DNA of 64,000 nucleotides, taken from the NCBI GenBank assembly GCA_016190755.1, contig JACPPY010000072.1, positions 37,458 to 101,457 on the forward strand, written 5' to 3'. The DNA comes from Chloroflexota bacterium (lineage in GTDB: Bacteria; Chloroflexota; Dehalococcoidia; JACPPY01). The notes below the pieces were generated by a model. That model did no database searches. It had not been told where the DNA came from and saw nothing but the letters and a program-made list of their open reading frames with translations. The position numbers and the translations under genes are program-made. Shown one piece after another: positions 10,928 to 32,868 of this stretch; within the stretch, counting starts at the first letter, position 1; the number at the start of each line of letters is the position of its first letter.

Positions 10928-11002
10928 AGGCGGGATTTGGGGCAGTCGGAATCTGCCGTCGGGCCTTCGAACTAGCGCAAAAAAGCGATCATTTCGTCGG
11001 GG

Positions 11003-12991: not shown

Positions 12992-12998
12992 TTTAAAG

Positions 12999-14390: not shown

Positions 14391-14400
14391 AGCCCTGACT

Positions 14401-15795: not shown

Positions 15796-15817
15796 TCACC
15801 AATCCAAGACAGCCTGG

Positions 15818-17026
15818 CTAAATAGCCCCCAGGTTGCGCAGCCGAACGATGTCCTCGCCGGAGAATCCGAGAAGCCCGGAATAGACCACAGCGTTATGCT
15901 GCCCCAGCAGCGGCGCCGGGGACTCGATCCGGGCGGGTGATGCCGCCATTTTGAAAGGCGCTCTAGGCATGGTGATCTTCCCGGCGTGCGGGTGCGTCAG
16001 AGTAGCAAAGTATTCCCGTGCCAGCAACTGCTCGCAGGTGCTCAGGTCTTGTATCGTCTGCACCATACCGAAAGGGAACCGCCAGGCCTGCGCTGTGGAG
16101 ACCAGTTCCCGTGTTTTCCACTTGGCGAACTCACGGTTGAGAATATCGAGAAGCTCCTGCGCGTTTACATCCCGCCCGGTTGGGTTGTCGAACTTGGGCA
16201 CATCGAGCTCGGGGCAGTTCATCATCGTTGAGAAGGACTTCCAGTCGGTGTACCCGTAGAACACCGGAGCCAGATAACCATCGGCGGTCTTCATGAGGAC
16301 TTCGTAGAGCCGGGGGCTCTTCGGGAGCCGCCTCATCACTGCGCCGGCATACGGGTAAAGCGCAGCCAGGAAATTAGTTATAGGCATCATGCTTTCCATG
16401 ATCGAGACATCGACAAACTGGCCCGAATTATCCTCATGGTTGGCATATACTGCGGCGACGGTCGCCGAAGCGGCATACCCGCCGGCGAAATACTGCCCCT
16501 GAAGCAGGCCGTGCTTCAAAGGGGAGCCTTCGTAGGTACCCAGCATGTACATGATGCCGCTTAATGCGTACTCTATGAGCTCGGTGGCGCGGTAATCACG
16601 ATACGGTCCCGTGGCGCCGAAATTGGAGATGGAGACCATGATGAGTCGCGGATTGAGCTTTTTCAGGTACTCATAGCCCAGGCCGAGCTTCTGGAGGTAG
16701 CCCGGCCTGAAGCTTTCGACGAGAACATCCGCCCAACCGACCAGCCGCTTCAGTATCTCTTTGCTATCGCTGCTCTTCAGGTCAAGCGTGACGCTTTTCT
16801 TGTCCGTGTTCAAATACAGGAAGAGCGCGCTGGCTTCGGGATCGGGCTGTCCGTTAACAGGTGCGCCTATCAGCCGTGCGCCGTCACCGGTGCCCGGTTT
16901 CTCGACCTTGATAACGTCTGCGCCGTATGTGGCGAGGAGCTTCGTGCAGTAGGGCCCAGCAACGTAATGCGTGAGATCCAGGACCTTCAGCCCGGATAGG
17001 GCGCCTTTTTCAGAGATCAACAACAC
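15818..17026 (-). CDS. Family III CoA-transferase (CaiB/BaiF/Frc type), paralog 1
   Basis: 402 aa. N-terminal signature LSGLKVLDLTHYVAGPYCTKLLATYGADVIKVEKPGTGD. GTG start. Lies 22 bp upstream of the second transferase. Confidence 0.85.
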   Translation of the reverse strand: MLLISEKGALSGLKVLDLTHYVAGPYCTKLLATYGADVIKVEKPGTGDGARLIGAPVNGQPDPEASALFLYLNTDKKSVTLDLKSSDSKEILKRLVGWADVLVESFRPGYLQKLGLGYEYLKKLNPRLIMVSISNFGATGPYRDYRATELIEYALSGIMYMLGTYEGSPLKHGLLQGQYFAGGYAASATVAAVYANHEDNSGQFVDVSIMESMMPITNFLAALYPYAGAVMRRLPKSPRLYEVLMKTADGYLAPVFYGYTDWKSFSTMMNCPELDVPKFDNPTGRDVNAQELLDILNREFAKWKTRELVSTAQAWRFPFGMVQTIQDLSTCEQLLAREYFATLTHPHAGKITMPRAPFKMAASPARIESPAPLLGQHNAVVYSGLLGFSGEDIVRLRNLGAI

Positions 17027-17165
17027 CCCTTTCGGAGGCCAATATTCGTAGATCCCATATGGGGTTGGTAGCCGGCGTCATACTCGCACAGCCTCAATGG
17101 AGGCTGATCCCAATACCTTCAGCAGCGACGTAGTTTAACACAATGGCCTTGGCCGGTCTTGTTTC

Positions 17166-19613
17166 TTAGACTTTCGCTACGGCCTCTTCGAGGGCCTTCT
17201 CCATCATCCCAGTCCCCCAGGACAGATGCTGGGTGCGCATGATGATCTGGTTCTGCAAATCGGTCGGAAGCTCCACGAAATAAGCGCTGTACCCTGCGAT
17301 GCGGACAATGACATTCTTGTAGTTTTCGGGGTGCTTCTGAGCTTCGAGCAATGTCTTGCGGTCCCAGATGTTGAACTGGATATGGAAGTGGCCCAGGTCT
17401 GCCCAAGTCTTGAGATAGGCCATGAATATTTCTTTATTCGGACCTCTCAGCAGGTCTGCGCTGAATTTCTGGTTGAACAAATGGTTATGGCTGCGCAGCG
17501 GGTCTATCTTGGAGGTAGACTTGAGCACAGCGGTCGGGCCGAGCATATCCTGGCCGGCAACCGGGGATATGCTGCCGTCATTGAAGGGCTGGCGGGCTTT
17601 GCGTCCATCAGGGGTGGCCGCCGTCTGGTCCCCATAGCCGATGTAGCCGGCCCCCGCGCTGCCGTCGAATGTGATTGGGCCGCCCCAGTAGTTCTTGACC
17701 TTCTTCAGGCGGCTGTTCAGGCGGTAGTGGATATCCCTGGCGATAAGGTCCACATAGTCATTGTCGTTGCCGAACTTGGGGGCTTTGAGGCAAAGCTGCC
17801 GCAGGTCTTCGTAACCTTCCCAATTCGCCTTAAGCGCCTTGACCATATCCGGCAGGATGAGCCTTTTCTCGTCGAAGACGAGCTTTCTGATGGCCGCCAG
17901 AGAGTCGGCGACCGTCGTCCCGCCCAGGTTGCCCATCGTCTCCTTTGGTATGTAGCTCCAACCCTTGCAGTCGCGTGCCTGCTCGATGCAACCGTCCAGC
18001 ATGGCTGAGAAGAATGGTCGCGGCAGGTACTCTTCGTAGAGCGCATTGCCGACCTCGTTTATCTGCGCCAGCTTTTCGGCGAAGAACCCTGCCTGGGTGA
18101 TAAAAGCGTCGATTATCTCATCGACATTGCGGAAGGTAGCCGGGTCGGGCGTGGGATAGCCTATCATCTCTCCGGTGAGCATGCATTTGCCCTGGTTGAG
18201 CGCCAGCTCAAAGCACTTTGCCAGCACCAGGTGACCGACATGGGCGCGGTCTGAGAGGTTCTTACCCGGCAGCGTCCAGCGTACGCATCCTTCCATCGCG
18301 TAGTCACGGGCGACGTTCAGGGGCACGCCGAACTCCAGCAAGTATGGGACCATCATCTCATCGTTGAACAAGGCCGGGTAGCCGACGCCGGTCGCGATTA
18401 CATCGACGGCCTTGGAGACAAGCTCAGGGTCTATCTTGGGATGATATCTAAGGCAGAGAGATGGCTGAAGTGTCTGCATTTCTTTCGAGGCATCCAAGAC
18501 GATGAAAGACACCTCGTTAGTGACGTCATCGCCTTCCGGCGTGACTCCGCCGATGGTCAGGTTCTGCCACAGACTGCTGGCGCCTATCTGTGAGCCCCAC
18601 ATCGGCGGGTAAAGGTCGCCGCGCTCTTCGAGCTTTATCCACAAGCACTCGACCAACTCCTGCGCCTCTTCCCGGGTTATCCGCCCTTCGCGCTTGTCCT
18701 TCTCGTAGAAAGGATAGAAATCACGGTCGAACCGCCCGGCGCAGCCGTTCATCTGCATCTCGATCGATCGGCTTATTACCGTCACGAGCCAGAAGAACTG
18801 TACCGCTTCATAGAATGTGCGAGGTGGGTTTTCAGGCACCCATTCGCAGATTTCGGCAAGTCGTTCAAGCTCGGCCTTGCGGGACAGGTCGGGATGGGCA
18901 CTGGCCTGCTCACGCGCCAGCTTAGCGAAGCGGTGTGAGAACTTGATCGCCGCCTGGAGCGATATGACGACGGCATCAAGGAAGTTCTTTTTATTCAGGT
19001 ATTCCTTGCCAGGCATCTTCTTATCGGCCTGAACTTCCTTGAGCTTGTCCTGCGCCTCCTGGATAAGGCCTTTGAAGCCCACCTGGAAAAGCTTGCGGAA
19101 GTTGGGTATGCCGGAGCTTGTGCCGTATGACCAGACATGCGCTCCCTTGTAAGCCCAGTAGGGTTTCAGGTCGTCGGGGATAAGGTCTCGTTCCTTTCCT
19201 TGGACCGACTTGTCCTTCCAATACTTGTTAAGCTCGTGGACTTCCTGTCTCTCCGCCTCGGAGAGCATGCCCTTGTACTCGCGGTCGACGGACTTGTCCA
19301 GCCAGCGCCAGTAGCATTCAGGGTAATATGGCAGAGAGGCGGTAGTGGAGGCGTAGTTCCCCGCCAGGAGCTGCCCTTCATCGATGTAAATGGTCATTTT
19401 CCCCAGGATTTTTTCGAGGGCGCGGGCACGGCGCAGCACCATAGGCTGACCTTCGGTCTCTTTGTAGGACTCCGTTACGAGGCGCGCCCGCTCGAGACAG
19501 ATTTTGACGTCCGGGCCATAGGCCACATCGCTCATCTTGGTGTAGCCCTTGGCCACTGAGTGGTAGATTTTGTCTACCATGTTTCGTTTCAGTCCCTGTG
19601 TCCTCTCACTCAT
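17166..19613 (-). CDS. Glycyl radical enzyme (PFL2/glycerol-dehydratase-like superfamily), substrate unknown
   Basis: 815 aa. C-terminal glycyl-radical fingerprint VIVRIAGYSAYFVEL...QNQIIMRTQH (Gly774 codon at 17292-17294). Cys loop GYPALFNDE...VARDYAMEGCVRW (Cys443 codon at 18285-18287). Confidence 0.9.
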   Translation of the reverse strand: MSERTQGLKRNMVDKIYHSVAKGYTKMSDVAYGPDVKICLERARLVTESYKETEGQPMVLRRARALEKILGKMTIYIDEGQLLAGNYASTTASLPYYPECYWRWLDKSVDREYKGMLSEAERQEVHELNKYWKDKSVQGKERDLIPDDLKPYWAYKGAHVWSYGTSSGIPNFRKLFQVGFKGLIQEAQDKLKEVQADKKMPGKEYLNKKNFLDAVVISLQAAIKFSHRFAKLAREQASAHPDLSRKAELERLAEICEWVPENPPRTFYEAVQFFWLVTVISRSIEMQMNGCAGRFDRDFYPFYEKDKREGRITREEAQELVECLWIKLEERGDLYPPMWGSQIGASSLWQNLTIGGVTPEGDDVTNEVSFIVLDASKEMQTLQPSLCLRYHPKIDPELVSKAVDVIATGVGYPALFNDEMMVPYLLEFGVPLNVARDYAMEGCVRWTLPGKNLSDRAHVGHLVLAKCFELALNQGKCMLTGEMIGYPTPDPATFRNVDEIIDAFITQAGFFAEKLAQINEVGNALYEEYLPRPFFSAMLDGCIEQARDCKGWSYIPKETMGNLGGTTVADSLAAIRKLVFDEKRLILPDMVKALKANWEGYEDLRQLCLKAPKFGNDNDYVDLIARDIHYRLNSRLKKVKNYWGGPITFDGSAGAGYIGYGDQTAATPDGRKARQPFNDGSISPVAGQDMLGPTAVLKSTSKIDPLRSHNHLFNQKFSADLLRGPNKEIFMAYLKTWADLGHFHIQFNIWDRKTLLEAQKHPENYKNVIVRIAGYSAYFVELPTDLQNQIIMRTQHLSWGTGMMEKALEEAVAKV

Positions 19614-19652
19614 CTCTTGCCTCCTGAAAGTGATTCCTGACGACTCTCCCAG

Positions 19653-20501
19653 CTAAAGCTTGAACACTTTTACCGCATTATCATGGAGCAGTTTCTTTTT
19701 GACGTCTTCCTTAAGGCCAAGGTCATCAATCTGCTGTAGCATCTTGTCCCAGGGAAGTCCGTTGCTGCCCCAAATGACCTTATCCTGACCCCGGGTGTTG
19801 ATAAACTTAACGACGTTCGGCTCGAGGTATTTCGGCATATGGGCGTCGACGCCGAAATAGATATTGTCGTACTTATAGCATATCGCAATAAGCTCCTCGC
19901 ACCAAGGATAACCGGTATGCGCGCCGATTATCTTGAGGCTGGGGAAATCGAGCGCAATGCGGTCCAGGTAGATGGGCCGGCCGTATTCGCTGTACATAGC
20001 CTCAAGCACGTACCCGACCTGTAGCGCCACCGGAACACCAAGCTCCTGGCACTTGGCATAAAGGGGATACATTGTCCTGTCATCTATGGCTGTATCGAAA
20101 CCGTAGACATGGACATATACTCCCTTAAAGCCATGGTCTTTCACCAGCCATTCGATTTCCTCAAGGCTTTCTTTGATCCTGAAGGGATTATAAGAAGCCA
20201 GGCCGGCAAAGCGGTCGGGATGTTTTTCCGTGTACTGAAGCACCTCTTCCGCCTTGGTATCGACATACCAGCGCTTGTTCCAGTGAGAGAACATCCTGAA
20301 CTCGCTGATAAGGACCTTCTCCACGTTTGCCTTGTCCATGGCCTCGATCATCTTTTCGATGCTGGGGTATGACGGCGGTTTGCCTCCAAGCGAGGCTTGC
20401 ATCCGGCAGATAATCTCCTGCTTGCCGGCCACATCCACCCTATCAACCCACTCCGGCGTTGTGACCGAGTTAAGAAAATCGATGGCCTTTATCTGTGGCA
20501 T
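19653..20501 (-). CDS. Amidohydrolase-2 family TIM-barrel protein (ACMSD/LigW/LigI-like)
   Basis: 282 aa. Family-like blocks GAHTGYPW and VIWGSNGLPW. The N-terminal strand reads AIDFLNS rather than the usual D-x-H-x-H, so the metal site may be atypical. Confidence 0.7.
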   Translation of the reverse strand: MPQIKAIDFLNSVTTPEWVDRVDVAGKQEIICRMQASLGGKPPSYPSIEKMIEAMDKANVEKVLISEFRMFSHWNKRWYVDTKAEEVLQYTEKHPDRFAGLASYNPFRIKESLEEIEWLVKDHGFKGVYVHVYGFDTAIDDRTMYPLYAKCQELGVPVALQVGYVLEAMYSEYGRPIYLDRIALDFPSLKIIGAHTGYPWCEELIAICYKYDNIYFGVDAHMPKYLEPNVVKFINTRGQDKVIWGSNGLPWDKMLQQIDDLGLKEDVKKKLLHDNAVKVFKL

Positions 20502-20555
20502 TCGCTATCCCTTCTATGCAGTTTTCGCAATCTGTTCTCAGGCCTTGGGCGGTGC

Positions 20556-21341
20556 CTATACCATAGCGTATCCGCCGTCGACGCTCAGAGTCTGCCCGGT
20601 AATAATGCCTGCGGCGGTGTCCGAGGCCAGGAAGACCACCGCGCTGGCGATATCCTTGGGCGCGGCCCCTTTACGCAGCGGATAGGCTTTCAGGGCTTTT
20701 TCGAGTACCTCGGGCGGCACAGGTGGTTCCTTCCAGGCGCTCTTGGCGCCCACCTCCTCCGGTTTTTCAGGTGCTACCAGGGAGGGGCAGACAACGTTCA
20801 CGCGTATATTGAACCTGCCGGCCTCTCGGGCGATTGCTTTCGAAAAGGCGATGACCGCCCCCTTACAGCCGGAGTAGACTGCTTCGCGGGCTTCGCCGAG
20901 CCTCCCGGCATCAGAACCGATATTAACGATCGCCCCACCGCCGTTCTGGGACATGTGCGGGAGAACAGCGCTTATCCAGTTCAGGTCCGTCTTGAAGTTG
21001 ATGGTAAGAAGCCTGTCCCACAGCTCCGGGTTAGTCTCAGTGAAAAAGGCTATCCGGTCCCAACCGACGTTGTTCACCAGGACATCCACCTTGCCGAACT
21101 CACCGAGGACCTTTTTAAGGGCAGCAGCTACGGCGTCATGGCTGGTGGCATCCGCGAGCACCACCATGGCCTTGACCCCCAGGCTGCGCGCCTTCTCGGC
21201 GGCGCGGTTCGCCTGTTCTTCGTCGATATCGGCTATGGCTACGTTAGCGCCCTCTTTTGCGAAGGCCAGCGTGATACCGTAGCCAATGTTTGAAGCCCCG
21301 CCGCTGATGATGACGTTCTTGCCTTTTAGTCCCAGGTCCAT
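20556..21341 (-). CDS. Short-chain dehydrogenase/reductase (SDR)
   Basis: 261 aa. Cofactor motif ISGGASNIGYG, NNVG, and catalytic YSGCKGA (YxxxK). Confidence 0.9.
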   Translation of the reverse strand: MDLGLKGKNVIISGGASNIGYGITLAFAKEGANVAIADIDEEQANRAAEKARSLGVKAMVVLADATSHDAVAAALKKVLGEFGKVDVLVNNVGWDRIAFFTETNPELWDRLLTINFKTDLNWISAVLPHMSQNGGGAIVNIGSDAGRLGEAREAVYSGCKGAVIAFSKAIAREAGRFNIRVNVVCPSLVAPEKPEEVGAKSAWKEPPVPPEVLEKALKAYPLRKGAAPKDIASAVVFLASDTAAGIITGQTLSVDGGYAMV

Positions 21342-21368
21342 TCTTCCTCCTAGTCTGTGACTAACGTG

Positions 21369-23429
21369 CTAATTGGCTCGTGCGATACGGCACGGCACTC
21401 CTTTTAGCCTGGGGAACCCGGAAATAGGATCCACTGGAGCATTGTCAGTCAAGAGATTGATGTTGGCATCCGCCCATCCGTGAGTGGCACTGAGCACGCC
21501 CGGCAGAATGTCTTCGGTGACCAGGGCTTTAACCGTGATTCTGCCGTTTTTGGTTTCGAGGATAGCGGACTTGCCGTTCTCAATGTTGTACTTGCTGGCG
21601 GTTTCGGGATGAATTTCTACCGCGTGCTCAGGGAGAATCTTGCGCAGCCTGGCAACCTGGCGCAACTGAGAGTGACAGAAAGGAAGTTTACGCGAGCCGG
21701 TCACCATGATCAACGGATAGGAGCCTCCGTTGCCGCCCGCGGCTGGCTGAGGCTCGCGGTAGGTTGGCAGCGGGTCATGCCCCAACTCTTCGAGGGTCTT
21801 GGAATATACCTCCATCTTGCCGGAAGGCGTGGGGAATCCACGGGTTTCATACTCCCTGAGCTTGACCGTGCCGTAGGTTACGCCGCCTGGGTCCTGTTTC
21901 GATAGCTTCTCTATTGACAGTCCCGAAGGCTCGAAAATATAGTCGATAGCCTCGTCAGCGGTTTGCCATGGGAAGTACTCTCCATAGCCCATACGCTTGG
22001 CGAGTTCGAGGTAGAAGGTCATGTCCGAGCGGCTTTCCTCATAAGTCACTATCTTTTTCTGCAACATAACGAACGGAAGTCCGTGCAGCATACGATAAAA
22101 GTCAAAGATGACGTTTCTCTCGAAGCAGCTGGCGGCGGGCAGCACAATGTGCGCCATCTCCGTGGTCCGGGTTGGGAAGAGGTCCATGGCCACAAGGAAG
22201 TCTAGGCTTTGCAGTGCTTCAGTCACTTTCCTGGAGTTGGGCCATGTCAACGCCAGGTTGGAGCCGGAAACAATGGCCGCCCTCACAGGGTAAGGCTTGC
22301 CATGGAGTATTGCATCCGGGAGGAGCATTGATTGCCCTTCACCCTCACCGATAAGCTTTCCCCAGACACCGTAGAATAGCGGGTACTTGTCTACGCCCAG
22401 AGGCTTGTGCTTCAAGAGATTTTCAAGCCTTACAGGCTTATGCCTGATGCTGGAAGTGGTGATGAATCCTCCCGGTACCTCGAAATTACCCGTGATAGCC
22501 TGTAGAATACAGCGCGCCCGGGAGAGCTGGACTCCCGAGCCTTGCTCCTCGAGAGTGTTGCTATAGGTGGCGATACACGCGGGCTTGATAGTGGCGAAGT
22601 CGCGGGCAATCTGTCGAATTTGTTGGGCGGGCACCCCAGTGAGCTCTTCAACCTTCTCCGGTGCGTAAGCCTTGATGTGTTCGGTGAGCTTGTCGAAGCC
22701 CAGCGCCCATTTGACGACGAAGTCCTTATCGTAGAGTCCTTCGCTGATAATGACGTTGAGCAACCCGAGCATAAGGGCGAGGTCGGTGCCCGGGCGTGGG
22801 GCGACATAGATGTCCGCTTTCTTCGCCAGGGCGGTGCGTCGCGGGTCGATGACAATCAGCCTGGTGCCTTTTTGCTTTAGCTGCAAGATGTCTCTAGCGA
22901 GGAACGGTTGTGAGTCGGAAGGGTTGGTCCCCCAGACCAGGATGCAGCGTGCGTTCTTCGGGTCGGGCAGCCCGTACTTCCCGAGAGTCAAGATATCCCC
23001 GATGATGAACGCGCGCCAGCACATGCTGTCAACCGAGAAGACACTTGGGGTACCATAGGCATCGCAAAAGCGGCGCACAAAAGTGATCGTGGCGCTGCCC
23101 TGCGTCAGAATGGGTTGTCCGAAACACACAGCCAGCGCGGTGGGGCCGTATTTTTCTTTAACCTTGCTAAGGTTGGCGGCGACGGTATCCAACGCCTCGT
23201 CCCAGGAGATCCTCTTGAAACCGTTGCCTTCCTTGCGCAAAGGAGATTTTATACGGTCCGGGTGGTAGATCATGCTCGCGGCATTGCGGGCACGGGCGCA
23301 TATCATACCCTTGTTTAAGGGATGCTCGGTCATCCCTTCCACTTTTTCTATTCGTCCGTCTGGACCAACAATAACGTTGAGACCACAACCAAGTCCACAG
23401 ATGCCGCAGGCTGTCTTGATCGTTTCCAA
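21369..23429 (-). CDS. Molybdopterin oxidoreductase (MopB superfamily), cytoplasmic, single subunit
   Basis: 686 aa with a TTG start. N-terminal FeS motif C-x2-C-x3-C-x28-C (ACGICGLGCG...GMICARA). No twin-arginine signal. C-terminal molydopterin dinucleotide-binding beta-barrel-like end (ILPGVLSATHGW). Confidence 0.85.
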   Translation of the reverse strand: METIKTACGICGLGCGLNVIVGPDGRIEKVEGMTEHPLNKGMICARARNAASMIYHPDRIKSPLRKEGNGFKRISWDEALDTVAANLSKVKEKYGPTALAVCFGQPILTQGSATITFVRRFCDAYGTPSVFSVDSMCWRAFIIGDILTLGKYGLPDPKNARCILVWGTNPSDSQPFLARDILQLKQKGTRLIVIDPRRTALAKKADIYVAPRPGTDLALMLGLLNVIISEGLYDKDFVVKWALGFDKLTEHIKAYAPEKVEELTGVPAQQIRQIARDFATIKPACIATYSNTLEEQGSGVQLSRARCILQAITGNFEVPGGFITTSSIRHKPVRLENLLKHKPLGVDKYPLFYGVWGKLIGEGEGQSMLLPDAILHGKPYPVRAAIVSGSNLALTWPNSRKVTEALQSLDFLVAMDLFPTRTTEMAHIVLPAASCFERNVIFDFYRMLHGLPFVMLQKKIVTYEESRSDMTFYLELAKRMGYGEYFPWQTADEAIDYIFEPSGLSIEKLSKQDPGGVTYGTVKLREYETRGFPTPSGKMEVYSKTLEELGHDPLPTYREPQPAAGGNGGSYPLIMVTGSRKLPFCHSQLRQVARLRKILPEHAVEIHPETASKYNIENGKSAILETKNGRITVKALVTEDILPGVLSATHGWADANINLLTDNAPVDPISGFPRLKGVPCRIARAN

Positions 23430-23688
23430 GGGAAGTACCTCCGCGTCCTGCTGAAATGGGCAAGACAGGGCCTAATAGGCGAAGTTCATATTCTGAACAA
23501 TCCTCAGCCCAATATACAAAACCAAGCGATCTCTTGTCAAAAGAGGTCAGTAACCCCAACAAAGCAGCGTTTCCGGGTATGTGCAACCTCCGGATGCACA
23601 TTCTTGCACTGGGCCTCCCGAGCCCAGAATAATACCGTTCAGTCCACGGTGAAAACGACTTTAGTCTCATACAAAGAGATTGCACGGT

Positions 23689-23883
23689 ATAGTACACCAG
23701 CTTGTCCACGTTGTACCTCGTGGCAAAGCCTGGGGAAGTCCTGTCCTTGTACTGCTGCACCCGCTGCACCAGATTGGTGGTGACTCCGGTGTAGAGTACT
23801 CTGTTGGTCTTGTTGGTCACGATGTAGACATAGGAGTGGCAGTAAACAGAGTATATTAGAGCACTGCCCGGTGAGGGATAGCA
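23689..23883 (-). pseudogene. Truncated GIY-YIG nuclease family gene (N-terminal half only)
   Basis: The frame is open from TTG 23883. It encodes ...YCHSYVYIVTNKTNRVLYTGVTTNLVQRVQQYKDRTSPGFATRYNVDKLVYY, which covers the GIY and YIG strands. After LVYY the expected AI.REK catalytic half is absent in all frames. The 217-aa track ORF (23167-23820) is read-through into non-coding DNA and the MopB gene. Confidence 0.55.
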
Positions 23884-24337: not shown

Positions 24338-25288
24338 CTACTTAGTGGGTAGCGTCTGAGCGTGGGTCAGCACATCTACGACGTCCTGGAGGCTCCACCC
24401 GGTTACCAATCCTGATGGCATGGCCGTGCCAGGCTGTCCGCTACGTACCTTGTGTATGAATTCCCACGGGTTGTCGAGAGCCAACGTGCCCACGTACTCC
24501 GGCTCTTCCGCCGAGCCGAAGTTCAACTGCTTCCCGTCCGAGCCATGGCAGGCAGCACAGACGCTGCTGAAGAGCTGCGACCCACGGGCCGCGTTGCCCC
24601 CAATGGGCTTCTTGGTAGCGTAGTCTATGTACGGGTTCACATTCACCAGGCTCTGGCTGAGAAAGGCGGCCAGGTCAGTTTGGGATTGCCCATCGAGCAG
24701 CTTAGAGAAGTCGTGGCGGTAATCGGTGCTCCCCTTCAGTATCTGGACAAGCTGTTCTTTAGACTTGGAAACGCCGGCGTCGTAGACCCCCACAAACCCG
24801 GTGTAGTGTGAGCCCTTGCTATAGGCGCCACCCTTGCCCTTATAATCCCAACCATGGCATTCTTTACAGCGCCAGGTGTCTGTACCCTTCCGAGTGTTGG
24901 TGGTCTGAAGTGCCCATAGCGCTTGATCTGCCGCTGGCGTGGCGGCCTTGGTCTCCTTTATCCAGTTGTCGTACAGCCGGCCTCCACGAGCGACGCTCGC
25001 GGCAGGTGCCGGTGTTCCTTGCAACGCCTCCGAGATGAGAGACTTGATCTCTTGAGTTGAGGGCTTAGGCCCTGCTGGACCTTGCTGACCCTGTGGTCCT
25101 TGGGCTCCTGCTGGCCCCACCTGTCCTTGTAGGCCTGCCGCCCCCGCTGGCCCGACGGATCCCGCCTGTCCTGCTGGCCCCGCTTGTCCGGTTGGACCTT
25201 GTGGGCCGGTGCAAGCGGCCGCGGCCAACCCTAAGGCGAGCAAGCCACCCAGTGCTGAGAGCAGGAATAACTTGCCTCTCTTTCCCAT
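24338..25288 (-). CDS. Diheme c-type cytochrome lipoprotein with N-terminal collagen-like (G-X-Y)16 repeat
   Basis: Track ORF trimmed to the second ATG (25288), which is preceded by AAGGAGG. Signal peptide with lipobox LAAAAC. Sixteen uninterrupted GXY triplets (GPQGPTGQAGPAGQAGSVGPAGAAGLQGQVGPAGAQGPQGQQGPAGPK, 25064-25207). Two CxxCH motifs (CKECH, CAACH). Confidence 0.8.
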   Translation of the reverse strand: MGKRGKLFLLSALGGLLALGLAAAACTGPQGPTGQAGPAGQAGSVGPAGAAGLQGQVGPAGAQGPQGQQGPAGPKPSTQEIKSLISEALQGTPAPAASVARGGRLYDNWIKETKAATPAADQALWALQTTNTRKGTDTWRCKECHGWDYKGKGGAYSKGSHYTGFVGVYDAGVSKSKEQLVQILKGSTDYRHDFSKLLDGQSQTDLAAFLSQSLVNVNPYIDYATKKPIGGNAARGSQLFSSVCAACHGSDGKQLNFGSAEEPEYVGTLALDNPWEFIHKVRSGQPGTAMPSGLVTGWSLQDVVDVLTHAQTLPTK

Positions 25289-25387
25289 ATTGATAGCCTC
25301 CTTCATTCACGGGAATGACCGCTGTTGCGGCCGGGTAATATCCTAATTACCTGAGGCAAGTTCGGGAATAGGTAGTCGTTGGGGATA

Positions 25388-25424
25388 AGCAAAGCAAAAA
25401 CGCCCTAATTGCCGGTAGGGCGTT
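25388..25424 (-). terminator. Intrinsic terminator after the response-regulator gene
   Basis: On the minus strand: stem AACGCCCT, 10-nt loop, AGGGCGTT, followed by TTTTGCTTTGC. Lies 26 nt downstream of the stop at 25450. Confidence 0.7.
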
Positions 25425-25449
25425 CGGGGGATGTCGCCACGAGGCTGGC

Positions 25450-26109
25450 CTACGAGTCCAGGGGTATAAGGCCTTTCCGTATGGCGTACTTGACTAGTTG
25501 CGCGCGATTGTGCATGCCCAGCTTGCCCATGATATTGTCACGATGGCTCTGCACGGTATGCAGGCTGATGCACAATGTCTCGGCGATCTGCGCAGTGGTT
25601 TTGCCCTCGGCGATCAACTGTAGGACCTCTCTCTCACGCTCCGTCAGGCCATCGCAACCGCCCGAGTCCTCGCCATTATCAACACGACGCAAATAGTCTA
25701 CCAGGAGCTTTTTGGCGACGGGAGGAAAAAGGTACACTTCGCCTCTATATACCGACCGCACCGCCGTGAGCAAGTCTTGAATATCCGCTCCTTTCAGAAC
25801 GTATCCCGATGCGCCCACCCGAACAGCCTGGAACAGATAGTCCTCCCTATCGTGCATGGTCAGTATCAGCACCTGTACACCGGGAACCTGTTTCTTGATT
25901 GCCTGCGTAGCCTCCAGGCCACCAAGCCCGGGCATGCCGATGTCCATCAGCACAACATCGAACGAGCCCGTCCCTGCTTTTGCGACGGCCTCGTCACCTG
26001 TTCCCGCCTCATCGACAACCTGCATGTCAGGCTGGGCGTTCAGCAGGCCTACTATTCCCCGGCGAATTAGTGTGTGGTCATCAGCCACTAGGATGCGAAT
26101 CTTTTCCAA
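25450..26109 (-). CDS. NarL/LuxR-family response regulator
   Basis: 219 aa. Receiver domain (ILVADDH...VLMDIGMPG). LuxR-type HTH (LTEREREVLQLIAEGKTTAQIAETLCISLHTVQSHR). Confidence 0.9.
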   Translation of the reverse strand: MEKIRILVADDHTLIRRGIVGLLNAQPDMQVVDEAGTGDEAVAKAGTGSFDVVLMDIGMPGLGGLEATQAIKKQVPGVQVLILTMHDREDYLFQAVRVGASGYVLKGADIQDLLTAVRSVYRGEVYLFPPVAKKLLVDYLRRVDNGEDSGGCDGLTEREREVLQLIAEGKTTAQIAETLCISLHTVQSHRDNIMGKLGMHNRAQLVKYAIRKGLIPLDS

Positions 26110-26126: not shown

Positions 26127-27995
26127 TTATGGGAATGGGACTTCCACAACGACTTGAGTACCTTTTCCTTGCTCAGAGCGGATGTCCAGGCGACCATTGA
26201 GCAGGCGTGTACGCTCCTGCATACCCAACAGGCCGAAGCTCAAGTCGGACGAGCCAGTACCAGTACCAAAGACCCGGTCAACATTGAAGCCCTTCCCATC
26301 GTCGGCAACCAGCACGGATGCCACGGAGTCGTGGAAGGAAAGCTCAATACGTGCATGCCGCGCCTCGGCATGCCGGACGATGTTGTTGATAGCTTCCTGG
26401 ACAATGCGAAACAGCGCTACCTCCAAATGTGGAGGTAGCCTAACTTCCTGGTGGTTCACTTCGACCGTCGTCCTCACGCCTTGTTCTTCAAGGTGTGTTT
26501 CAGCGTACCAGCGAATAGCCGGCACCAGGCCGAGGTCCTCCAGGGCCAGAGGGCGAAGGTCCAATATGAGACGGCGCGTCTCTTCCAGCAAGCGCCTGAC
26601 GATACCCTGCGCCTCGTGGATTTGGTTAACAGTCTCCCCTTCGGAATCCTTCAGGCCATAGCGGGCACGGTCAAGTGCGATGGACAGGGCTCCGATAGTC
26701 TGGGCTGTTTCATCATGTAGTTCTCGCGCAAGTCTCCGCCGCTCTTGTTCCTGGGCAGAGATGATCTTGCTCAGGGCCTCCGTCAGGCGGGCTGTTCGCT
26801 GCTTCACCTGCGTCTCAGCCTCTCCCTTTGCCCGGCTGATTGCCTGGTAGGCGTCCCTCAACTGCATTCGCATGGCCTCCAGGCTTGCGGCCAGTGTCTC
26901 CACCTCGTCCTGAGCACTCACATTGATGGGTGTTTCCAGGTCGCCCTTGGCCATGCGCCGCGCTGCTTCAGTCAACTGTTCCGTAGGCTTGACCACCTGC
27001 CTCCTCGTGATCCACCAGGCGACCAGAAGGGTTGCTCCAAACCCCAGCGTAGTCGCCAGCAGTATCCTTCTCCTCAACTCACCGGGCAAAGCCAGGGCTA
27101 CATCCACCGGCTGCTCAAGCAGGACGTAAAAAGGAGAAGGATCCAACGGTACGATCGCCATCACATGCGCCGAAAAGGCATCGCCGGAAGACGGTTCGTG
27201 TGCCACGGCGGCAGCCTGCCGCTGAGCGGCGAACTCTGTGATCATGGGGAAGTGCGGGCTTGTTTCCCCGGGCTTCACCCCCTCCCCGATACCCAGCACC
27301 GTGAGCCCGTTTGCGTCCACAACTTCCAGATGGTACTCCGGCTCAGGTGTGTCCTTTTGAGCTACCGTCGTTGCTATGCCCGACACTGCCCGCCAGTAGG
27401 CTTCAGGCTTGTATGCGGCCGAGCTGTTGACTGAAACGGTGTGGACAGCCACCAGGAACGCGGGTGAGGCTCCGGTGTTGCCCAATCGCACCAGCATCGT
27501 CGCGAAGGGAAAAGCATCCGGTATGGGGCTCACAGCCGGCAGTGACAAGAACGGAGCTTGATCCATTTTGGCCATCCAGGACGACACCTGCGCGACTTGT
27601 CCTCCCGGGGAAACCTCTGGTTCTCCCGCAGCTGTCTCTATTCGGCCATCACGAGCTACAACCCAAACGCCCGTGATTCGGAAGAAGGGGAACGGGTCGG
27701 TTTCAGAGAGGTGACTCAGCAACTCCTGTGCTGCTGTCCCGGAGGGCTCTCTGCCTCGCGCAAGCATCGGGTCGAAAACCTCGTGAACATCTCGTGCAAC
27801 ATGGAGGAAATCTCTCTCCATGATGCCGGCCACCGTGTAGGCTGTGGCAAGGCGCTCTTCGTACACTAGCTGCGTCGCCTCTCGAACAGAAAGGAAGCCC
27901 ACGACGGCGAATGCGCCAAACAAGACGACAAGCCCCGCGGCAACATAGAGCATCATACGCTTCTGCATACCCAGCCGCTTGAACCGCCACACCAT
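26127..27995 (-). CDS. Sensor histidine kinase (HisKA_3/NarX-DegS type) with large extracytoplasmic domain and HAMP
   Basis: 622 aa. TM1, an extracytoplasmic segment of about 270 aa, TM2, and a HAMP-like linker. H-box RRLARELHDETAQ. ATPase blocks (DDGKGF, GLLGMQER). Confidence 0.85.
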   Translation of the reverse strand: MVWRFKRLGMQKRMMLYVAAGLVVLFGAFAVVGFLSVREATQLVYEERLATAYTVAGIMERDFLHVARDVHEVFDPMLARGREPSGTAAQELLSHLSETDPFPFFRITGVWVVARDGRIETAAGEPEVSPGGQVAQVSSWMAKMDQAPFLSLPAVSPIPDAFPFATMLVRLGNTGASPAFLVAVHTVSVNSSAAYKPEAYWRAVSGIATTVAQKDTPEPEYHLEVVDANGLTVLGIGEGVKPGETSPHFPMITEFAAQRQAAAVAHEPSSGDAFSAHVMAIVPLDPSPFYVLLEQPVDVALALPGELRRRILLATTLGFGATLLVAWWITRRQVVKPTEQLTEAARRMAKGDLETPINVSAQDEVETLAASLEAMRMQLRDAYQAISRAKGEAETQVKQRTARLTEALSKIISAQEQERRRLARELHDETAQTIGALSIALDRARYGLKDSEGETVNQIHEAQGIVRRLLEETRRLILDLRPLALEDLGLVPAIRWYAETHLEEQGVRTTVEVNHQEVRLPPHLEVALFRIVQEAINNIVRHAEARHARIELSFHDSVASVLVADDGKGFNVDRVFGTGTGSSDLSFGLLGMQERTRLLNGRLDIRSEQGKGTQVVVEVPFP

Positions 27996-28111
27996 GTCGA
28001 TCTCTCTCCGTGACCGTTGAATGCCCGCTTTGGTTAGAGCATTCTACCACCGGCGTGGCTAGCGTGAAAATCGCTTCGTCAAGAGGTTGTTTCGAGATAT
28101 GCAGATCGGGC

Positions 28112-29377
28112 TTGACAACGCTCAGGTATGTACTCTATCTTCGAATAAGGGGGCTCAAAATTATCAGAGCGACCGTATTTATCGTAGCAATCATTTCGCT
28201 GTTCCTTTCTTGGGCATGTTCTGGGCGGCCAGCGGGGACGACTGCATCCCCTTCGGCAGCGCTCACCACAACCGCACGCTCCACGACTGCGCCCATTACA
28301 ACCTCGCCCTCTGCGATTGCGCGCCCTACAACCGTGTCCCCTACTGCAGTGCCGGCGGTTAGTACACTGGCTGGGGGCCTCGTCACTCCCTGGGCAATAG
28401 ACTTCGCTCCGGACGGCCGAATCTTTCTGACCGAAAGGCCGGGGCGCATCCGCGTTATCAAGGGCGGATCACTCCAGCCAGACCCCTGGTTCACACTGGA
28501 GGTGGTGGAAGCAGGCGAGTCGGGACTGCTGGGCCTGGCCCTGGACCCTCAGTTTACACAAAGCCGCTTCATCTACGTGGCCTATACTTACCGCACCACT
28601 GACGGCAAGCTACAGAACAGACTGGTCCGGTTGCGCGATGAACCCGCTTCCGCGCGGGGCGCCCTGGACAGGGTACTCCTCAACGGAGTTGCCGGGGCGG
28701 GTGGCCACGACGGCGGACGGGTCAAGTTCGGCCCTGATGGCAAGCTGTACTGGACCATAGGGGAAGTCGGGAGCCCGGCCCTGGCGCAAAACATATCTTC
28801 TCTCAATGGCAAGATATTACGACTCAACCCTGACGGAACTGTCCCCGCGGACAACCCCTTCCCCAACTCTCCCGTGTACTCCTATGGACACCGCAACCCC
28901 CAGGGCCTTGCCTGGCAGCCGGGCACCGGCAGGTTGTACGAGACGGAACATGGCCCCAGCGGCGTACCCGGTGGGCGCGACGAGGTCAACTATATCGAAG
29001 CAGGAAAGAACTATGGATGGCCGGTGATAAGCGGAGACGAGACAAGCACGGGCATGGTTCCACCCGTACTTCAGAGCGGAACTTCAACCACCTGGGCTCC
29101 CGCCGGTGCTGCTTTCGTGGCACAGGGACCATGGTCGGGTTCTTTGCTCTTTGGCGGGCTCCGCGGTGAAGCCCTCTACCGGCTTATTCTCGACCCTTTG
29201 GATCCCCGCAATGTCTTGTCCTTCGAACCGATGTTTTCCGGCAAATACGGACGCCTGCGTGATGTGGCCCAGGGGCCTGACGGGGCCATTTACGTCCTGA
29301 CCAGCAATCGCGATGGTCGCGGAAACCCTGCCGCCGGAGACGACAGGATACTGAAGTTAACCTTCGGCACGAGGTGA
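28112..29377 (+). CDS. PQQ-dependent sugar (glucose/sorbosone) dehydrogenase-like beta-propeller lipoprotein
   Basis: Motifs GLVTPWAIDFAPDGRIFLTERPGRIRVI, GLLGLALDP, YSYGHRNPQGLAW and NYGWP. Lipobox LSWAC followed by a Thr/Ser/Pro/Ala linker. Start is uncertain. The track gives GTG 28010, but an in-frame TTG at 28112 leaves a 116-bp divergent region with the kinase gene. No in-frame ATG exists. Confidence 0.8.
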   Translation: MTTLRYVLYLRIRGLKIIRATVFIVAIISLFLSWACSGRPAGTTASPSAALTTTARSTTAPITTSPSAIARPTTVSPTAVPAVSTLAGGLVTPWAIDFAPDGRIFLTERPGRIRVIKGGSLQPDPWFTLEVVEAGESGLLGLALDPQFTQSRFIYVAYTYRTTDGKLQNRLVRLRDEPASARGALDRVLLNGVAGAGGHDGGRVKFGPDGKLYWTIGEVGSPALAQNISSLNGKILRLNPDGTVPADNPFPNSPVYSYGHRNPQGLAWQPGTGRLYETEHGPSGVPGGRDEVNYIEAGKNYGWPVISGDETSTGMVPPVLQSGTSTTWAPAGAAFVAQGPWSGSLLFGGLRGEALYRLILDPLDPRNVLSFEPMFSGKYGRLRDVAQGPDGAIYVLTSNRDGRGNPAAGDDRILKLTFGTR

Positions 29378-30415: not shown

Positions 30416-32500
30416 TCAGGGGGTTACCACAAATGTACCCGTCATTAACAGAGGGTGTACGTCACAGCGGAAGAAGTAGTTCCCGGGTTGGGATGGCGCG
30501 GTGAACCGATATGCGGTGGTCGATGGGCCGGTGATCGTCTCGCCCAGGAAGATCGAAGTAGCGGCACTGGAGCTGGTATAGACGGCGAAGTTATGGGGAA
30601 TGGCGGAGTCGGCGTTGTTGAAGTTCACCGTCACTTGCGCTCCTGCGGGAACGGTCACGGTATTTGTGTTAAAGGCCAGGTTCTGCGCACTGAGGTTGAC
30701 CGTAGCCGTCCTGCCGCTGGGAGTCGGAGTAGGAGTCGCAGTTGGTCTGGGCGTCGCCGCCGGAGTTGCTGTCGGCGTAGGTGTAGGTATGGCTGTACGG
30801 CCCGGTATGGGTGTGGGAGTACGGAACGGTGCGGGCGACACTGTGGGCCTAGGCGTGGGAGAAGGAGTTGGCGTTGGAGGGGCTATACCCAGCTTGAAGG
30901 CCAACACGACAGGGGTACCAACAGCCGGAGTACCCGTCGCACCTGCCGCCCCGGCTGGCCATATGATCATGTCTCCGGAAACCGCAGGGAATGCATTGAT
31001 GCCCGCGGGCGCCCTGTAGCGCCATACTATTTCGCCCGTATCGCGCTTTAGAGCGTAGATGTTGCCCTTCAGGTCTGCGGTGAATACGAGGTCGTTGACT
31101 ACCGTGGCAGCACCTAGCGCCATGTAGTCGAATTTCTGAATCCACAGCGTTCTTCCGGTACTCACCTCGATGGCGACCAACTCCCCGGAACCTTTCAAGG
31201 CATCGAATGTACCCACTCTTCTAGATGGTGTCCAGTCGGTCGCATAGTCGATGACCGGGACGTACACGACTCCATCAGCGTAAGCCATTGGGGTTTCAAC
31301 GCCGCCGATAACGCCCGGGATCACTCTCGTGGTTCCAGGAGGCAGTTCCCTCAGCTCGGCTGCCGGGTTATGCTCACCGACGTTTGCTACCCAAAGCAAA
31401 GCGCCAGTGTCACGGTTCATGGCGTATACCTTGCCCATCTTCCCGGCTGTTATCACGATATCTTGTTCTTTATCGTTGATCTTGGCCCGAGTCAGTATCG
31501 GTGAGATCTGAAGGTCATGGTCGAAGATATCAAAGGGCAGAACTTGATTGAACCATTTCAGCTCTCCTGTGGCGTGGTTCATCGACAGCAAGGAGTCGGT
31601 GTAGAGCGTGTCGCCTATGAAGCTTGAACCGCTGGGGAAGTCGGCAGTGCCCGGGAACGGGGCGGGGTTAGCGATAGACCAGAACATCTGGCCGGTGTTG
31701 GTATCTATTGCCGGCGGGTACCAGGCGCCGCCGCCGCTGTTGATCTCGGGATGCCCGAAGAGGTCGGGAGACTTAATGGTGTCGAACAACCACTTGACCT
31801 GCCCGGTCTGCTGGTCTATGGCATATAGTATGCCCCTGCCGCCCGGAGCGTAGAAGATATCCCCGGTGCCGGGAACAGTGGAGACATAGATCAGGTTATC
31901 GAATGGAGTAGGCTGGATATCAAGGCCTGTAGTAGGAATGTCCGAAAGCTTGATCGCCCACAGCTCATTGCCGTTGTTGACATCCAATGCCACCAGGGTA
32001 TAAGGGTCAGACAAGGCAAACAGCTTCCCATATGCAACCACGGGACCATTGGGGCCCTCTGACCCGGCGGTATTGTAGTCTTTGCGCCATTTTATCTGTC
32101 CCGTCGCTTTATCCAGCGCAAAGACGTTTGATTTGAGGTCTTGGAAGTACACTGTGTCGCCCAGGATGATGGGGTTGCTACCTGCTGCTCCACCGAACAG
32201 CCCAATTCCTGGAATGCTGAACTGCCAGGCAACGCCGAGGGTGTTTACGTTGGAAGAGTTGATGGGAGAGTCTGTAGTCGCCCTTGTATTGGAATAGTCT
32301 CTGTTGGTTAATGGCCAGTCTCTGGCGTTCTGGACTATCTCCGCAGGGACACCGGGGGCCGCCGTCGTTACAGGCACGGGCGTTGGCGTTGGCCCTCCTT
32401 GTGCGGCAACGAAATTGACCGTTGCCATCGCCATGATCGTGATGATGGCTGCCGCCAGGACTACTACTTGTTTTTTGATAGAAGATCGATTCCGGTTCAT
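30416..32500 (-). CDS. Secreted PQQ-like beta-propeller protein fused via PT linker to a C-terminal type-1 copper (cupredoxin) domain
   Basis: Track ORF trimmed to ATG 32500 (RBS GGAGG 5 nt upstream). Signal anchor, then a repeated propeller region of about 500 aa. PT-rich linker (PPTPTPSPTPRPT...TPTPTPS). Cupredoxin domain at about 30419-30709 with ligand pattern H(IPHNF)...C-x2-H-x3-M (FRCDVHPLLM). Confidence 0.8.
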   Translation of the reverse strand: MNRNRSSIKKQVVVLAAAIITIMAMATVNFVAAQGGPTPTPVPVTTAAPGVPAEIVQNARDWPLTNRDYSNTRATTDSPINSSNVNTLGVAWQFSIPGIGLFGGAAGSNPIILGDTVYFQDLKSNVFALDKATGQIKWRKDYNTAGSEGPNGPVVAYGKLFALSDPYTLVALDVNNGNELWAIKLSDIPTTGLDIQPTPFDNLIYVSTVPGTGDIFYAPGGRGILYAIDQQTGQVKWLFDTIKSPDLFGHPEINSGGGAWYPPAIDTNTGQMFWSIANPAPFPGTADFPSGSSFIGDTLYTDSLLSMNHATGELKWFNQVLPFDIFDHDLQISPILTRAKINDKEQDIVITAGKMGKVYAMNRDTGALLWVANVGEHNPAAELRELPPGTTRVIPGVIGGVETPMAYADGVVYVPVIDYATDWTPSRRVGTFDALKGSGELVAIEVSTGRTLWIQKFDYMALGAATVVNDLVFTADLKGNIYALKRDTGEIVWRYRAPAGINAFPAVSGDMIIWPAGAAGATGTPAVGTPVVLAFKLGIAPPTPTPSPTPRPTVSPAPFRTPTPIPGRTAIPTPTPTATPAATPRPTATPTPTPSGRTATVNLSAQNLAFNTNTVTVPAGAQVTVNFNNADSAIPHNFAVYTSSSAATSIFLGETITGPSTTAYRFTAPSQPGNYFFRCDVHPLLMTGTFVVTP

Positions 32501-32868
32501 TGATACCTCCCGTATTACCTCACAGTATTTAGTTCGACGCCGAAGTGAAAGCGAATAGTATATTGGGAATCCGATGTTCTGTACTAGCGGAGCGATCCCT
32601 GTGAGGCCTGAATGGATGGCACACGCCAGACGGTCCGTCCAGACACACGGTCCCTTGATACTATCCCAAACATACTGCAAAGCAGGGCGGAAGGTAATTG
32701 TTGGTCACGCGTATCTTATGGGGAAAACCAGCGTTAGCGACTACTTATGCGCGTCGCGCATCAGGGTCTCGACAAATCGACCGATCCGCAGGCCTCTCTA
32801 TCATCAGGGCCTTTCCGCTCTCCTTGAGCCAACTGCCAGCCCAGATGCAGTAGATGGCTCCCCCTCTA

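Follow-up and report, generated by a model that had tools for sequence, protein, structure and literature searches.

A putative lipid-anchored dihaem cytochrome with a collagen-like tract

The window analysed here is a stretch of 64,000 nucleotides from a Chloroflexota bacterium (contig JACPPY010000072.1, positions 37,458 to 101,457), and the gene under study lies on its reverse strand as a complete coding sequence at 24338–25288, with 316 codons from the Met codon at 25288 to a TAG stop codon at 24338–24340. The product is best described as a respiratory cytochrome c that a collagen-like stalk tethers to the membrane, and it represents one instance of an undescribed module. The layout noticed in the initial annotation, namely a lipobox followed by a collagen-like tract and a dihaem cytochrome c, is borne out both by the reading of the open reading frame (ORF) and by the Pfam scores. 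The sequences are already public, with precomputed Pfam Collagen matches; what is new is the recognition and interpretation of the stalked cytochrome, not the sequence itself.

The ORF containing the gene extends to an upstream ATG at 25306 (24338–25306, reverse strand), and it is there that the NCBI record begins (MBI2854780.1, ‘c-type cytochrome [Chloroflexota bacterium]’, 322 amino acids), with 100% identity to the window protein over the searched 243-residue core and over the full ORF. The true start is likely to be the ATG at 25288 and not that at 25306, because a Shine–Dalgarno-like GGAGG read from the sequence (25297–25301, reverse strand) is located 8 nt 5' of the former; the start coordinate given originally, 25288, agrees with the position of this motif. 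The lipoprotein signal peptide (MGKRGKLFLLSALGGLLALGLAAAAC; 25211–25288, reverse strand) ends with ...LGLAAAAC, a bacterial lipobox that agrees with the PROSITE-type rule and predicts lipidation at Cys26 (codon 25211–25213). In an alignment of 57 sequences, this column holds Cys in the homologues that have an N-terminal lipobox. The collagen-like tract had been placed directly after this Cys; the adjacency is real, but one Thr sits between Cys26 and the first triplet.

The tract itself (residues 28–75; 25064–25207, reverse strand) consists of 16 uninterrupted Gly-X-Y triplets, the same number and coordinates as first reported: GPQ GPT GQA GPA GQA GSV GPA GAA GLQ GQV GPA GAQ GPQ GQQ GPA GPK. 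The residues at the X positions are PPQPQSPALQPAPQPP and those at the Y positions QTAAAVAAQVAQQQAK; Pro occupies 8 of the 16 X positions and none of the Y positions, and there are no charge pairs. The Pfam Collagen profile (PF01391) matches residues 28–74 above its gathering threshold (32.3 bits versus a cutoff of 27.2). Across the six frames of the window, this is the single run of at least six triplets, the second longest being a run of five in a second reading frame within the 14401–15795 gene span, and the chance of 16 in-register Gly residues is about 1e-17 per position if Gly is assumed to make up ~8% of residues. Tandem Repeats Finder detected no tandem repeat in the DNA of the tract, so that a repeat collapse is unlikely, and all four Gly codons are in use (GGA 6, GGG 5, GGT 3, GGC 2). 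As a triple helix, the 16 triplets would have a calculated length of ~13.7 nm. The tract is followed by a ‘neck’ segment, PSTQEIKSLISEALQG (residues 76–91; 25016–25063, reverse strand), with a helix predicted by AlphaFold2 at residues 78–90, over which 10-residue blocks average pLDDT 94 and 89.

The remainder of the protein (residues 92–316; 24341–25015, reverse strand) is modelled as an all-alpha dihaem cytochrome c core, the model having a mean pLDDT of 84 and a pTM of 0.72. Both of the CxxCH haem motifs reported initially are present on the reverse strand, CKECH at 24854–24868 and CAACH at 24545–24559, and invariance of the residues in and around them was judged in the 57-sequence alignment. 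In the first motif, all five residues (C141, K142, E143, C144 and H145) are invariant and, in the second, C244, C247 and H248. The C-terminal haem domain has the features of class I c-type cytochromes (CxxCH, a distal Met and an alpha-helical fold); Cytochrome_CBB3 (PF13442; 40.5 bits, cutoff 27) and Cytochrom_C (PF00034; 37.5 bits) both score above their cutoffs over residues 232–292, and profile matches to this domain include CcoP, cytochrome cy, QcrC, c4 and c6, the first three of these being the best. Haem 2 is probably His/Met ligated, the candidate distal ligand being the invariant Met290 in AMPS (24419–24421, reverse strand), 42 residues past H248, which is the spacing of class I cytochromes c. 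The N-terminal haem domain stands out by an invariant CKECHGWDY motif; it reaches only a sub-threshold match to DUF1924 (16.5 bits versus a cutoff of 22.5), and it contains no conserved Met and no extra conserved Cys among the 57 sequences. The invariant His192 in RHDF (24713–24715, reverse strand) is the candidate distal ligand of haem 1, which judging from this conservation is probably His/His ligated.

Conservation of the tract and the devices that replace it

A search with the cytochrome core yielded 3081 homologues at E<=1e-3, and clustering at 50% left 431 representatives at E<=1e-30, many of which carry the dihaem module two to six times. Among the 120 closest homologues, 37 carry at least four Gly-X-Y triplets at the same position, the longest tract having 31; when shorter tracts are counted too, the length ranges from 3 to 31 triplets. 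The layout is constant, C-x-(GXY)n-PS and then the same short helix, so the question posed at the outset, whether the tract is conserved or variable in length, has the answer that its position is fixed and its length is not. Near relatives at 75–81% identity in the core already differ in n (for example, 9, 12, 16 and 18 triplets), and the tract persists down to ~55–60% core identity. The homologues with a tract come from four independent sources (NCBI, JGI, ENA and Logan assemblies), and repeat collapse or chimerism, initially considered as a possible origin of the tract, is excluded because the tract recurs in dozens of independent assemblies.

In the neighbour-joining tree, nearly all Gly-X-Y forms fall into one large clade, within which there are a few losses (P0024, P0026 and P0114; proteins and loci are cited by their numbers) and a nested replacement by an SLH domain. 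Four retention devices occur on the same conserved core: a lipobox with Gly-X-Y tract and neck helix; a lipobox with a Pro/Thr-rich linker of 23–52 residues; an N-terminal SLH domain (P0081 and P0091 in the dihaem family); and a Sec signal combined with a C-terminal LPXTG-like sorting signal. In the alignment of 57 sequences, members of the Gly-X-Y clade have the neck, as do the SLH forms and P0024 and P0026, which are recent derivatives of that clade; the Pro/Thr-linker and LPXTG clades show a gap there. That these four devices interchange on one core is the chief argument for reading the Gly-X-Y tract as an envelope tether or spacer. Chloroflexota are generally held to have a single membrane, and each of the four devices suits a cell that has no outer membrane.

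An LPxTG-like motif followed by a hydrophobic stretch and a basic tail is found in P0075, P0080, P0085, P0096, P0116 and P0118; members of this type with a Sec signal would be sortase-anchored c-type cytochromes. The dihaem module also occurs in tandem, with two to six copies in single proteins of up to ~1500 residues (P0361–P0392), which are possible long haem wires.

The same stalk on unrelated cytochromes

When 1.17 Mb of related loci were scanned for Gly-X-Y runs, all other real ORFs with at least six triplets turned out to be c-type cytochromes, nearly always with a lipobox and of unrelated architecture. They include MtrC/OmcA-type decahaem proteins (L010, two in L021, and L054), an octahaem (L030), a hexahaem (L039), trihaems (L014, L027, L037 and L042) and pentahaem fusions of a trihaem part with the dihaem core described here (for example, in L027, L029 and L042). 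A total of 104 lipoprotein-like ORFs were compared: at least five triplets are present in 26 of the 75 that have haem motifs, and the one tract among the 29 haem-less ORFs is an antisense artefact, which leaves 0 of 28 real ones. The tract is absent from all 120 homologues of the SBP_bac_5 lipoprotein of the window, which served as the control, and the other exported proteins of the window (GSDH, SBP, DUF4349-PKD and PQQ-cupredoxin) have linkers rich in Pro, Thr and Ser. A search with the decahaem of L010 showed 4–29 Gly-X-Y triplets in 53 of 120 homologues; among MtrC/OmcA-type homologues with a lipobox, the fraction is 47 of 52, and one MtrC-like homologue (P0349) has an SLH domain in place of the stalk. 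The stalk is a phylum-wide cassette on several unrelated cytochrome families, a point overlooked when the tract was first noticed, and this module is apparently cytochrome-specific and widespread in Chloroflexota.

In the tri- and pentahaem proteins (L027, L029, L042 and others), the sequence LTEDQ[VL]KAL… that follows the tract resembles the neck of the dihaem proteins, PSxEE[IL]KAL…; the two segments, stalk and neck, may move as a single unit. There are also versions with 10–28 triplets that lack the Cys and have a transmembrane (TM) anchor (L032, 9680–10735; P0350; P0371; P0445). P0350 (L087, 10001–12268) is an MtrC-like decahaem encoded among archaeal-type genes (Trm112p, ThiN, TRASH and DUF4443), and L032 derives from a metagenome-assembled genome (MAG) labelled Thaumarchaeota. 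Collagen-stalked cytochromes may occur in archaea as well, unless these contigs are misbinned.

Stalk lengths of cytochromes encoded in the same genome tend to agree. The clearest case is a cluster (L085, GCA_016210605.1) in which genes for a multihaem protein, a cytochrome b, a NapC/NirT-like multihaem, a dihaem of the present family (P0054) and an MtrC-like decahaem follow each other in this order. P0054 has 26 triplets, and the neighbouring decahaem ORF (9689–12049) has 25 of almost the same sequence. The 5' ends of these two adjacent genes are 88% identical in DNA over ~340 nt, with one 9-nt indel, and the remainders of the genes are unrelated; hence a module of signal and stalk moves, or is homogenised, between genes. 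Similar pairs were found in L010 (8 and 8 triplets), L029 (10 and 12), L021 (12 and 13) and L049/L090 (19 and 22; assigned to the same MAG through contig prefixes), as well as in the paralogous pairs of L027 (8 and 7) and L042 (7 and 7). Permutation tests of the match within genomes gave p ~0.003 with few pairs, and no second Gly-X-Y cytochrome is present on the fetched stretches around P0279, P0350, P0282, P0346, P0274 and P0268. The matched lengths suggest, as hypotheses, either that the stalk is tuned to an envelope dimension or that the cytochromes are co-assembled on one helix.

The database entry of the L085 decahaem (P0293) starts at an internal Met (10001) and thereby loses the signal, the lipobox and all 25 triplets, and several other decahaem matches classed as having no lipobox begin exactly where the first conserved domain does. 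Stalks probably tend to be missed in annotation, gene callers sometimes choosing a start downstream of the Gly-X-Y tract.

A collagen triple helix or an extended leash

Residue preferences at the X and Y positions were computed over 60 unique tracts comprising 852 triplets. Pro makes up 46.1% of X positions and 7.9% of Y positions; the opposite bias is seen for Gln (3.2% at X, 25.5% at Y), Thr (2.6% and 9.5%) and Lys plus Arg (1.3% and 8.7%), and Leu is found at 4.6% of X and 0.2% of Y positions. The charge motifs KGD and GER occur 33 and 22 times, respectively, in these tracts, and the family-wide preferences are compatible with a triple helix by the PF01391 test. Bacterial collagens prefer Pro at X (PMC8968730); KGD/KGE pairs raise the melting temperature of the triple helix by 15–17 °C, and Arg at Y stabilises it about as much as hydroxyproline does (PMC7824840). 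Given that a free leash offers no reason for the X/Y asymmetry or for the KGD and GER pairs, a real triple helix is favoured, at somewhat better than even chances on these sequence preferences. The triple helix and the trimer, suggested already in the initial annotation, are inferred from such preferences. The short neck helix (78–90) in the model is a candidate trimer nucleator, and the lipid-anchored N-termini together with this helix could provide a local concentration and register that free peptides lack.

Several observations weigh against a collagen-stalked electron carrier. In the AlphaFold2 model of the monomer, the tract is an extended, low-confidence segment without secondary structure (pLDDT 55–75). 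The window tract has no charged pairs, and its 48 hydroxyproline-free residues fall short of the 75-residue hydroxyproline-free fragments of Scl2, which melt near 23.5 °C (PMC7824840), so that taken alone it would be marginal as a triple helix; a stretch of 3–7 triplets, as in some homologues, cannot make a stable helix on its own. Pro/Thr linkers at the same place show that a simple extended spacer can suffice, no canonical trimerisation domain was recognised in the protein, and the neck helix amounts to about two heptads. The samples behind the cytochrome specificity are modest and enriched for cytochrome neighbourhoods, and the window holds no other cytochrome, alternative complex III (ACIII) or oxidase, hence no visible redox partner.

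The most serious alternative, which is appreciably less probable than the triple helix and yet a real contender, is that the tract forms a monomeric, extended leash similar to polyproline II, without any triple helix and equivalent to Pro/Thr linkers or to the linker of cytochrome cy. Such a leash would be in keeping with the Pro/Thr linkers of related proteins, the shrinkage of the tract to 3–7 triplets in close relatives, the coil of the monomer model, the lack of charge pairs in the window tract and of a recognised trimerisation domain, and the mixture, in MAG JACPQC, of a dihaem with a Pro/Ala linker and a decahaem with 12 Gly-X-Y triplets. However, it leaves unexplained why Gly recurs with a perfect period over up to 31 triplets that are not a repeat in the DNA, and why the X/Y asymmetry and the KGD and GER pairs follow the stability rules of triple helices (PMC7824840). 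Nor does it explain why, among the proteins seen, Gly-X-Y is found on cytochromes only, whereas other lipoproteins, several of them in the window, have linkers of Pro, Thr and Ser.

Starting again from the triple helix, the observation that co-resident cytochromes carry near-identical stalks raises the prospect of mixed triple helices. The broader idea is that of an exchangeable stalk module of Chloroflexota (and apparently of some archaea, with a TM anchor) that lifts different cytochromes to a common, genome-specific height, and on which mixed helices may form; we consider it doubtful. If true, a relay dihaem and an MtrC-type decahaem terminal reductase would stand side by side on one rod, forming an electron conduit with a collagen scaffold across an envelope that has no outer membrane.

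Genomic context and redox partners

Directly upstream of the cytochrome gene are a NarL/LuxR-type response regulator (25450–26109, reverse strand; Pfam Response_reg and GerE) and its partner, a HAMP/HisKA_3 sensor histidine kinase (26127–27995, reverse strand). A terminator-like hairpin with a T-run, found as a consensus match between the regulator and cytochrome genes (25398–25425, reverse strand), suggests that the cytochrome gene has its own transcription start; a scan for sigma-70 promoters upstream of it gave no match. Neighbouring genes were clustered for 81 related loci on contigs selected as one genome per species, mostly from Chloroflexota, with some from Rokubacteria, Methylomirabilis, Binatia and Acidimicrobiia. 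The kinase is a conserved neighbour (cluster c2, 28 loci), and a kinase/regulator pair lies just upstream of the family member in about 20 of the 81 loci. BlaI/BlaR1-like regulators adjoin the cytochrome in eight loci of the Gly-X-Y clade (L002, L005, L006, L009, L012, L014, L015 and L022), with a BlaI-type repressor and a BlaR1/M56 membrane protease immediately 5' of the Gly-X-Y dihaem gene, which is unusual for a cytochrome. In about a dozen mainly Anaerolineales loci, an ACIII-like operon (pentahaem ActA, Mo-like ActB, an iron–sulfur (FeS) protein, NrfD and ActD) is located beside the family member, and other recurrent neighbours are FeS/NrfD pairs, Rieske proteins and further cytochromes. 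The 64-kb window itself contains no Act genes, and so the window protein does not qualify as an ACIII accessory of the ActE kind. No conserved operon partner of the window gene emerged, the contexts of P0009 and P0057 being different; P0009, the closest homologue with a known context (81% identical), shares only the two-component pair with the window.

Two exported redox proteins are encoded beyond the two-component system: a GSDH-family lipoprotein with a Thr/Ser/Pro-rich linker of ~55 residues (28010–29377, forward strand), and a beta-propeller dehydrogenase of the pyrroloquinoline quinone (PQQ) type that is joined through a Pro/Thr linker to a C-terminal cupredoxin (30416–32680, reverse strand). 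PQQ dehydrogenases commonly pass electrons to c-type cytochromes or cupredoxins, both proteins have N-terminal export signals, and the present cytochrome is the only c-type cytochrome in the window; it might therefore be their dedicated electron acceptor, a connection proposed in the initial annotation. The genes are real, but the connection did not hold up: in the 81 loci, neither PQQ nor GSDH genes form a recurrent neighbour cluster, so that a partnership is unsupported, P0009 has nothing in common with the window beyond the two-component system, and the genes lie on different strands or belong to different transcription units, with the two-component system in between. A dedicated role of this kind is unlikely.

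Still less probable, to the point of being a long shot, is that the head is an enzyme, either a thiosulfate dehydrogenase like TsdA or another small-molecule oxidoreductase akin to it, and not an electron carrier. JGI names many of the homologues ‘thiosulfate dehydrogenase’, the sequence around haem 1 is very strongly conserved, and TsdA (4v2k) is the best Foldseek match (E 1.6e-3, probability 0.94). However, no Foldseek match reaches E<=1e-3 and no solved structure is close by sequence; the structural neighbours ranked highest, QcrC and TsdA, have low TM-scores, the fit to 4v2k giving 0.18–0.25 with a root-mean-square deviation of ~13 Å, and the TsdA family profile matches with an E of only 0.065, in the CxxCH region alone. 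With regard to a c4/QcrC type, in which two class I domains stand in tandem, only the second domain matches clearly, the first giving no more than the sub-threshold DUF1924 match. TsdA is defined by a catalytic haem with His/Cys axial ligation, and such a haem cannot be present, since the only conserved Cys residues are those of the two CxxCH motifs, and the invariant His192 is found at the expected place of the axial ligand; membership in TsdA was rejected for want of this Cys. An electron-carrier role fits the head better than a TsdA enzyme does, because the module is concatenated in tandem, up to six times per protein in a wire-like manner, and because family members adjoin electron-transfer complexes. 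The stalk architecture goes unnoticed behind automated names like ‘thiosulfate dehydrogenase’ or simply ‘c-type cytochrome’.

The idea that the tract is a functionless product of neutral low-complexity expansion or of assembly, to which the wide length variation among close relatives, as expected of slippage-prone sequence, lends an initial appeal, is barely credible and is refuted as far as the sequence data reach, given its presence in dozens of independent assemblies, its retention down to ~55–60% core identity, the absence of a tandem repeat in the DNA, the constant phase C-x-(GXY)n-PS and the confinement to cytochromes in the samples taken.

Other features of the window

Cytochrome c maturation genes are located at 6503–8928 on the forward strand (a ResA-like thioredoxin, 6503–7189; CcdA/DsbD_TM, 7186–7920; CcmH, 8314–8928) and attest to at least some of the machinery for covalent haem attachment in this organism; a 159-residue ORF among them (7943–8422) has no Pfam match. 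The region 9083–23429 is an anaerobic-type catabolic gene cluster with an aldehyde:ferredoxin oxidoreductase (9083–10927), an old yellow enzyme (OYE)-type flavin reductase (11003–12991), MmgE/PrpD (12999–14390), two family III CoA-transferases (14401–17026), a glycyl-radical enzyme (17166–19613), an amidohydrolase, a short-chain dehydrogenase/reductase and a cytoplasmic molybdopterin oxidoreductase (21369–23429). Between the latter and the cytochrome gene lies a fragment of a GIY-YIG nuclease domain (23580–23820, reverse strand; ~46 residues, E 1e-6), possibly a decayed remnant of a mobile element. A secreted protein of 377 residues without a Pfam match (33360–34493, reverse strand) has a C-terminal tail of ~100 residues rich in Pro, Thr and Ala (…TPTPTPRATPAATPTATPRATP…). 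A second pair of sensor kinase and NarL-type regulator, with domains read from the translations, is encoded at 59038–61205 (reverse strand) and adjoins a nitroreductase-family protein with an N-terminal membrane segment (61202–62302).

A proposed mechanism and its implications

The reading that we consider probable, with reasonable though not strong confidence, is that of an extracytoplasmic electron-carrier cytochrome that is anchored by a lipid and whose haems are spaced from the membrane by a collagen-type stalk. The protein would be exported through the Sec pathway, lipidated and cleaved at Cys26, whereby its N-terminus would be fixed in the outer face of the cytoplasmic membrane, and CKECH and CAACH would each receive a haem. 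The spacer of 16 triplets would set the distance or the reach of these haems from the membrane. Most likely, three parallel chains would wind into a collagen-type triple helix of ~14 nm with the lipidated N-termini together, helix 78–90 perhaps helping to fix the register of the chains, and the product would be a trimeric ‘lollipop’ with six haems. The head would relay electrons from quinol-oxidising modules of the membrane, which in related genomes are of the ACIII-like, NrfD/FeS or NapC/cytochrome b types, to more distal partners, which in related genomes include decahaems of the MtrC/OmcA type mounted on a similar stalk. The HisKA_3/NarL pair located immediately 5' of the gene probably governs its expression.

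How respiratory electrons cross thick single-membrane envelopes to reach distant or insoluble acceptors is poorly understood, and the stalk bears on this problem in the largely uncultured Chloroflexota that carry genes for stalked cytochromes. A rigid, length-tunable rod for positioning haems would add to flexible leashes and to SLH and sortase anchoring, and the roles of bacterial collagens would widen from adhesion and spore surfaces to bioenergetics. Because the stalks are short (7–31 triplets), free of hydroxyproline and linked to a coloured reporter domain, trimerisation, the selectivity of heterotrimers and the dependence of function on length are directly testable on recombinant protein. 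A possible use is as parts that place redox proteins at set distances.

Comparison with known systems

In open-access text, no paper was found that describes a collagen-like region on any cytochrome c, and the initial statement that no cytochrome c with collagen-like repeats was known stands to that extent. Among the papers checked, neither those on cytochromes nor those on collagens mention the other topic, and neither cytochromes nor lipoproteins figure in a review of prokaryotic collagens (PMC8968730). The bacterial collagen-like proteins Scl1/Scl2, BclA, Lcl and Bucl8, in structure the nearest counterparts, resemble the stalk in their hydroxyproline-free Gly-X-Y sequence, with Pro at X and polar or charged residues at Y (PMC8968730), in their variable repeat number and in the presentation of a globular surface domain on the stalk. 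Proteins of the Scl/BclA type differ in that they serve as adhesins or form spore filaments, have recognised trimerisation domains and are attached through LPXTG or to the exosporium, whereas the window protein would be anchored by a lipid at its N-terminus and has a redox domain as its head. Membership in the Scl, BclA or Lcl families was rejected, the NCBIfam scores being 28–33 bits against cutoffs of 325–500 and the match being limited to the Gly-X-Y region.

A succession of anchor or bundle, collagen stalk, helical neck and globular head is familiar from eukaryotic membrane collagens, class A scavenger receptors and collectins. The likeness to these proteins is one of layout only, with a parallel helix and three N-termini at the membrane, and implies no homology; moreover, their necks comprise three to four heptads and are proven trimerisers, whereas the helix predicted here has ~13 residues. 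TsdA (PDB 4V2K and 4WQ7) is similar in combining two class I-like haem domains in one chain of ~230 residues and differs in its His/Cys haem, which the family of the window protein lacks.

Single-membrane metal reducers have multihaem cytochromes in their cell wall, such as those of Thermincola and the SLH-anchored OmhA of Carboxydothermus. Here too, cytochromes span a thick envelope without an outer membrane, and SLH variants exist in both the dihaem and the MtrC-like families described above; the difference lies in the positioning by a collagen-like stalk, which no paper searched was found to describe.

Tethered cytochromes, namely cytochrome cy of Rhodobacter, c551 and c550 of Bacillus and c553 of heliobacteria, are held by lipoprotein or TM anchors. 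They are functionally nearest to the protein described here, with which they share an N-terminal anchor, a long linker and a class I head that carries electrons at the outer face of the cytoplasmic membrane. Unlike cytochrome cy, with its flexible leash rich in Ala and Pro, the window protein has a strict Gly-X-Y tract and, unlike this group as a whole, it carries a two-haem head with an unusual first domain, marked by the CKECHGWDY motif and a weak match to DUF1924.

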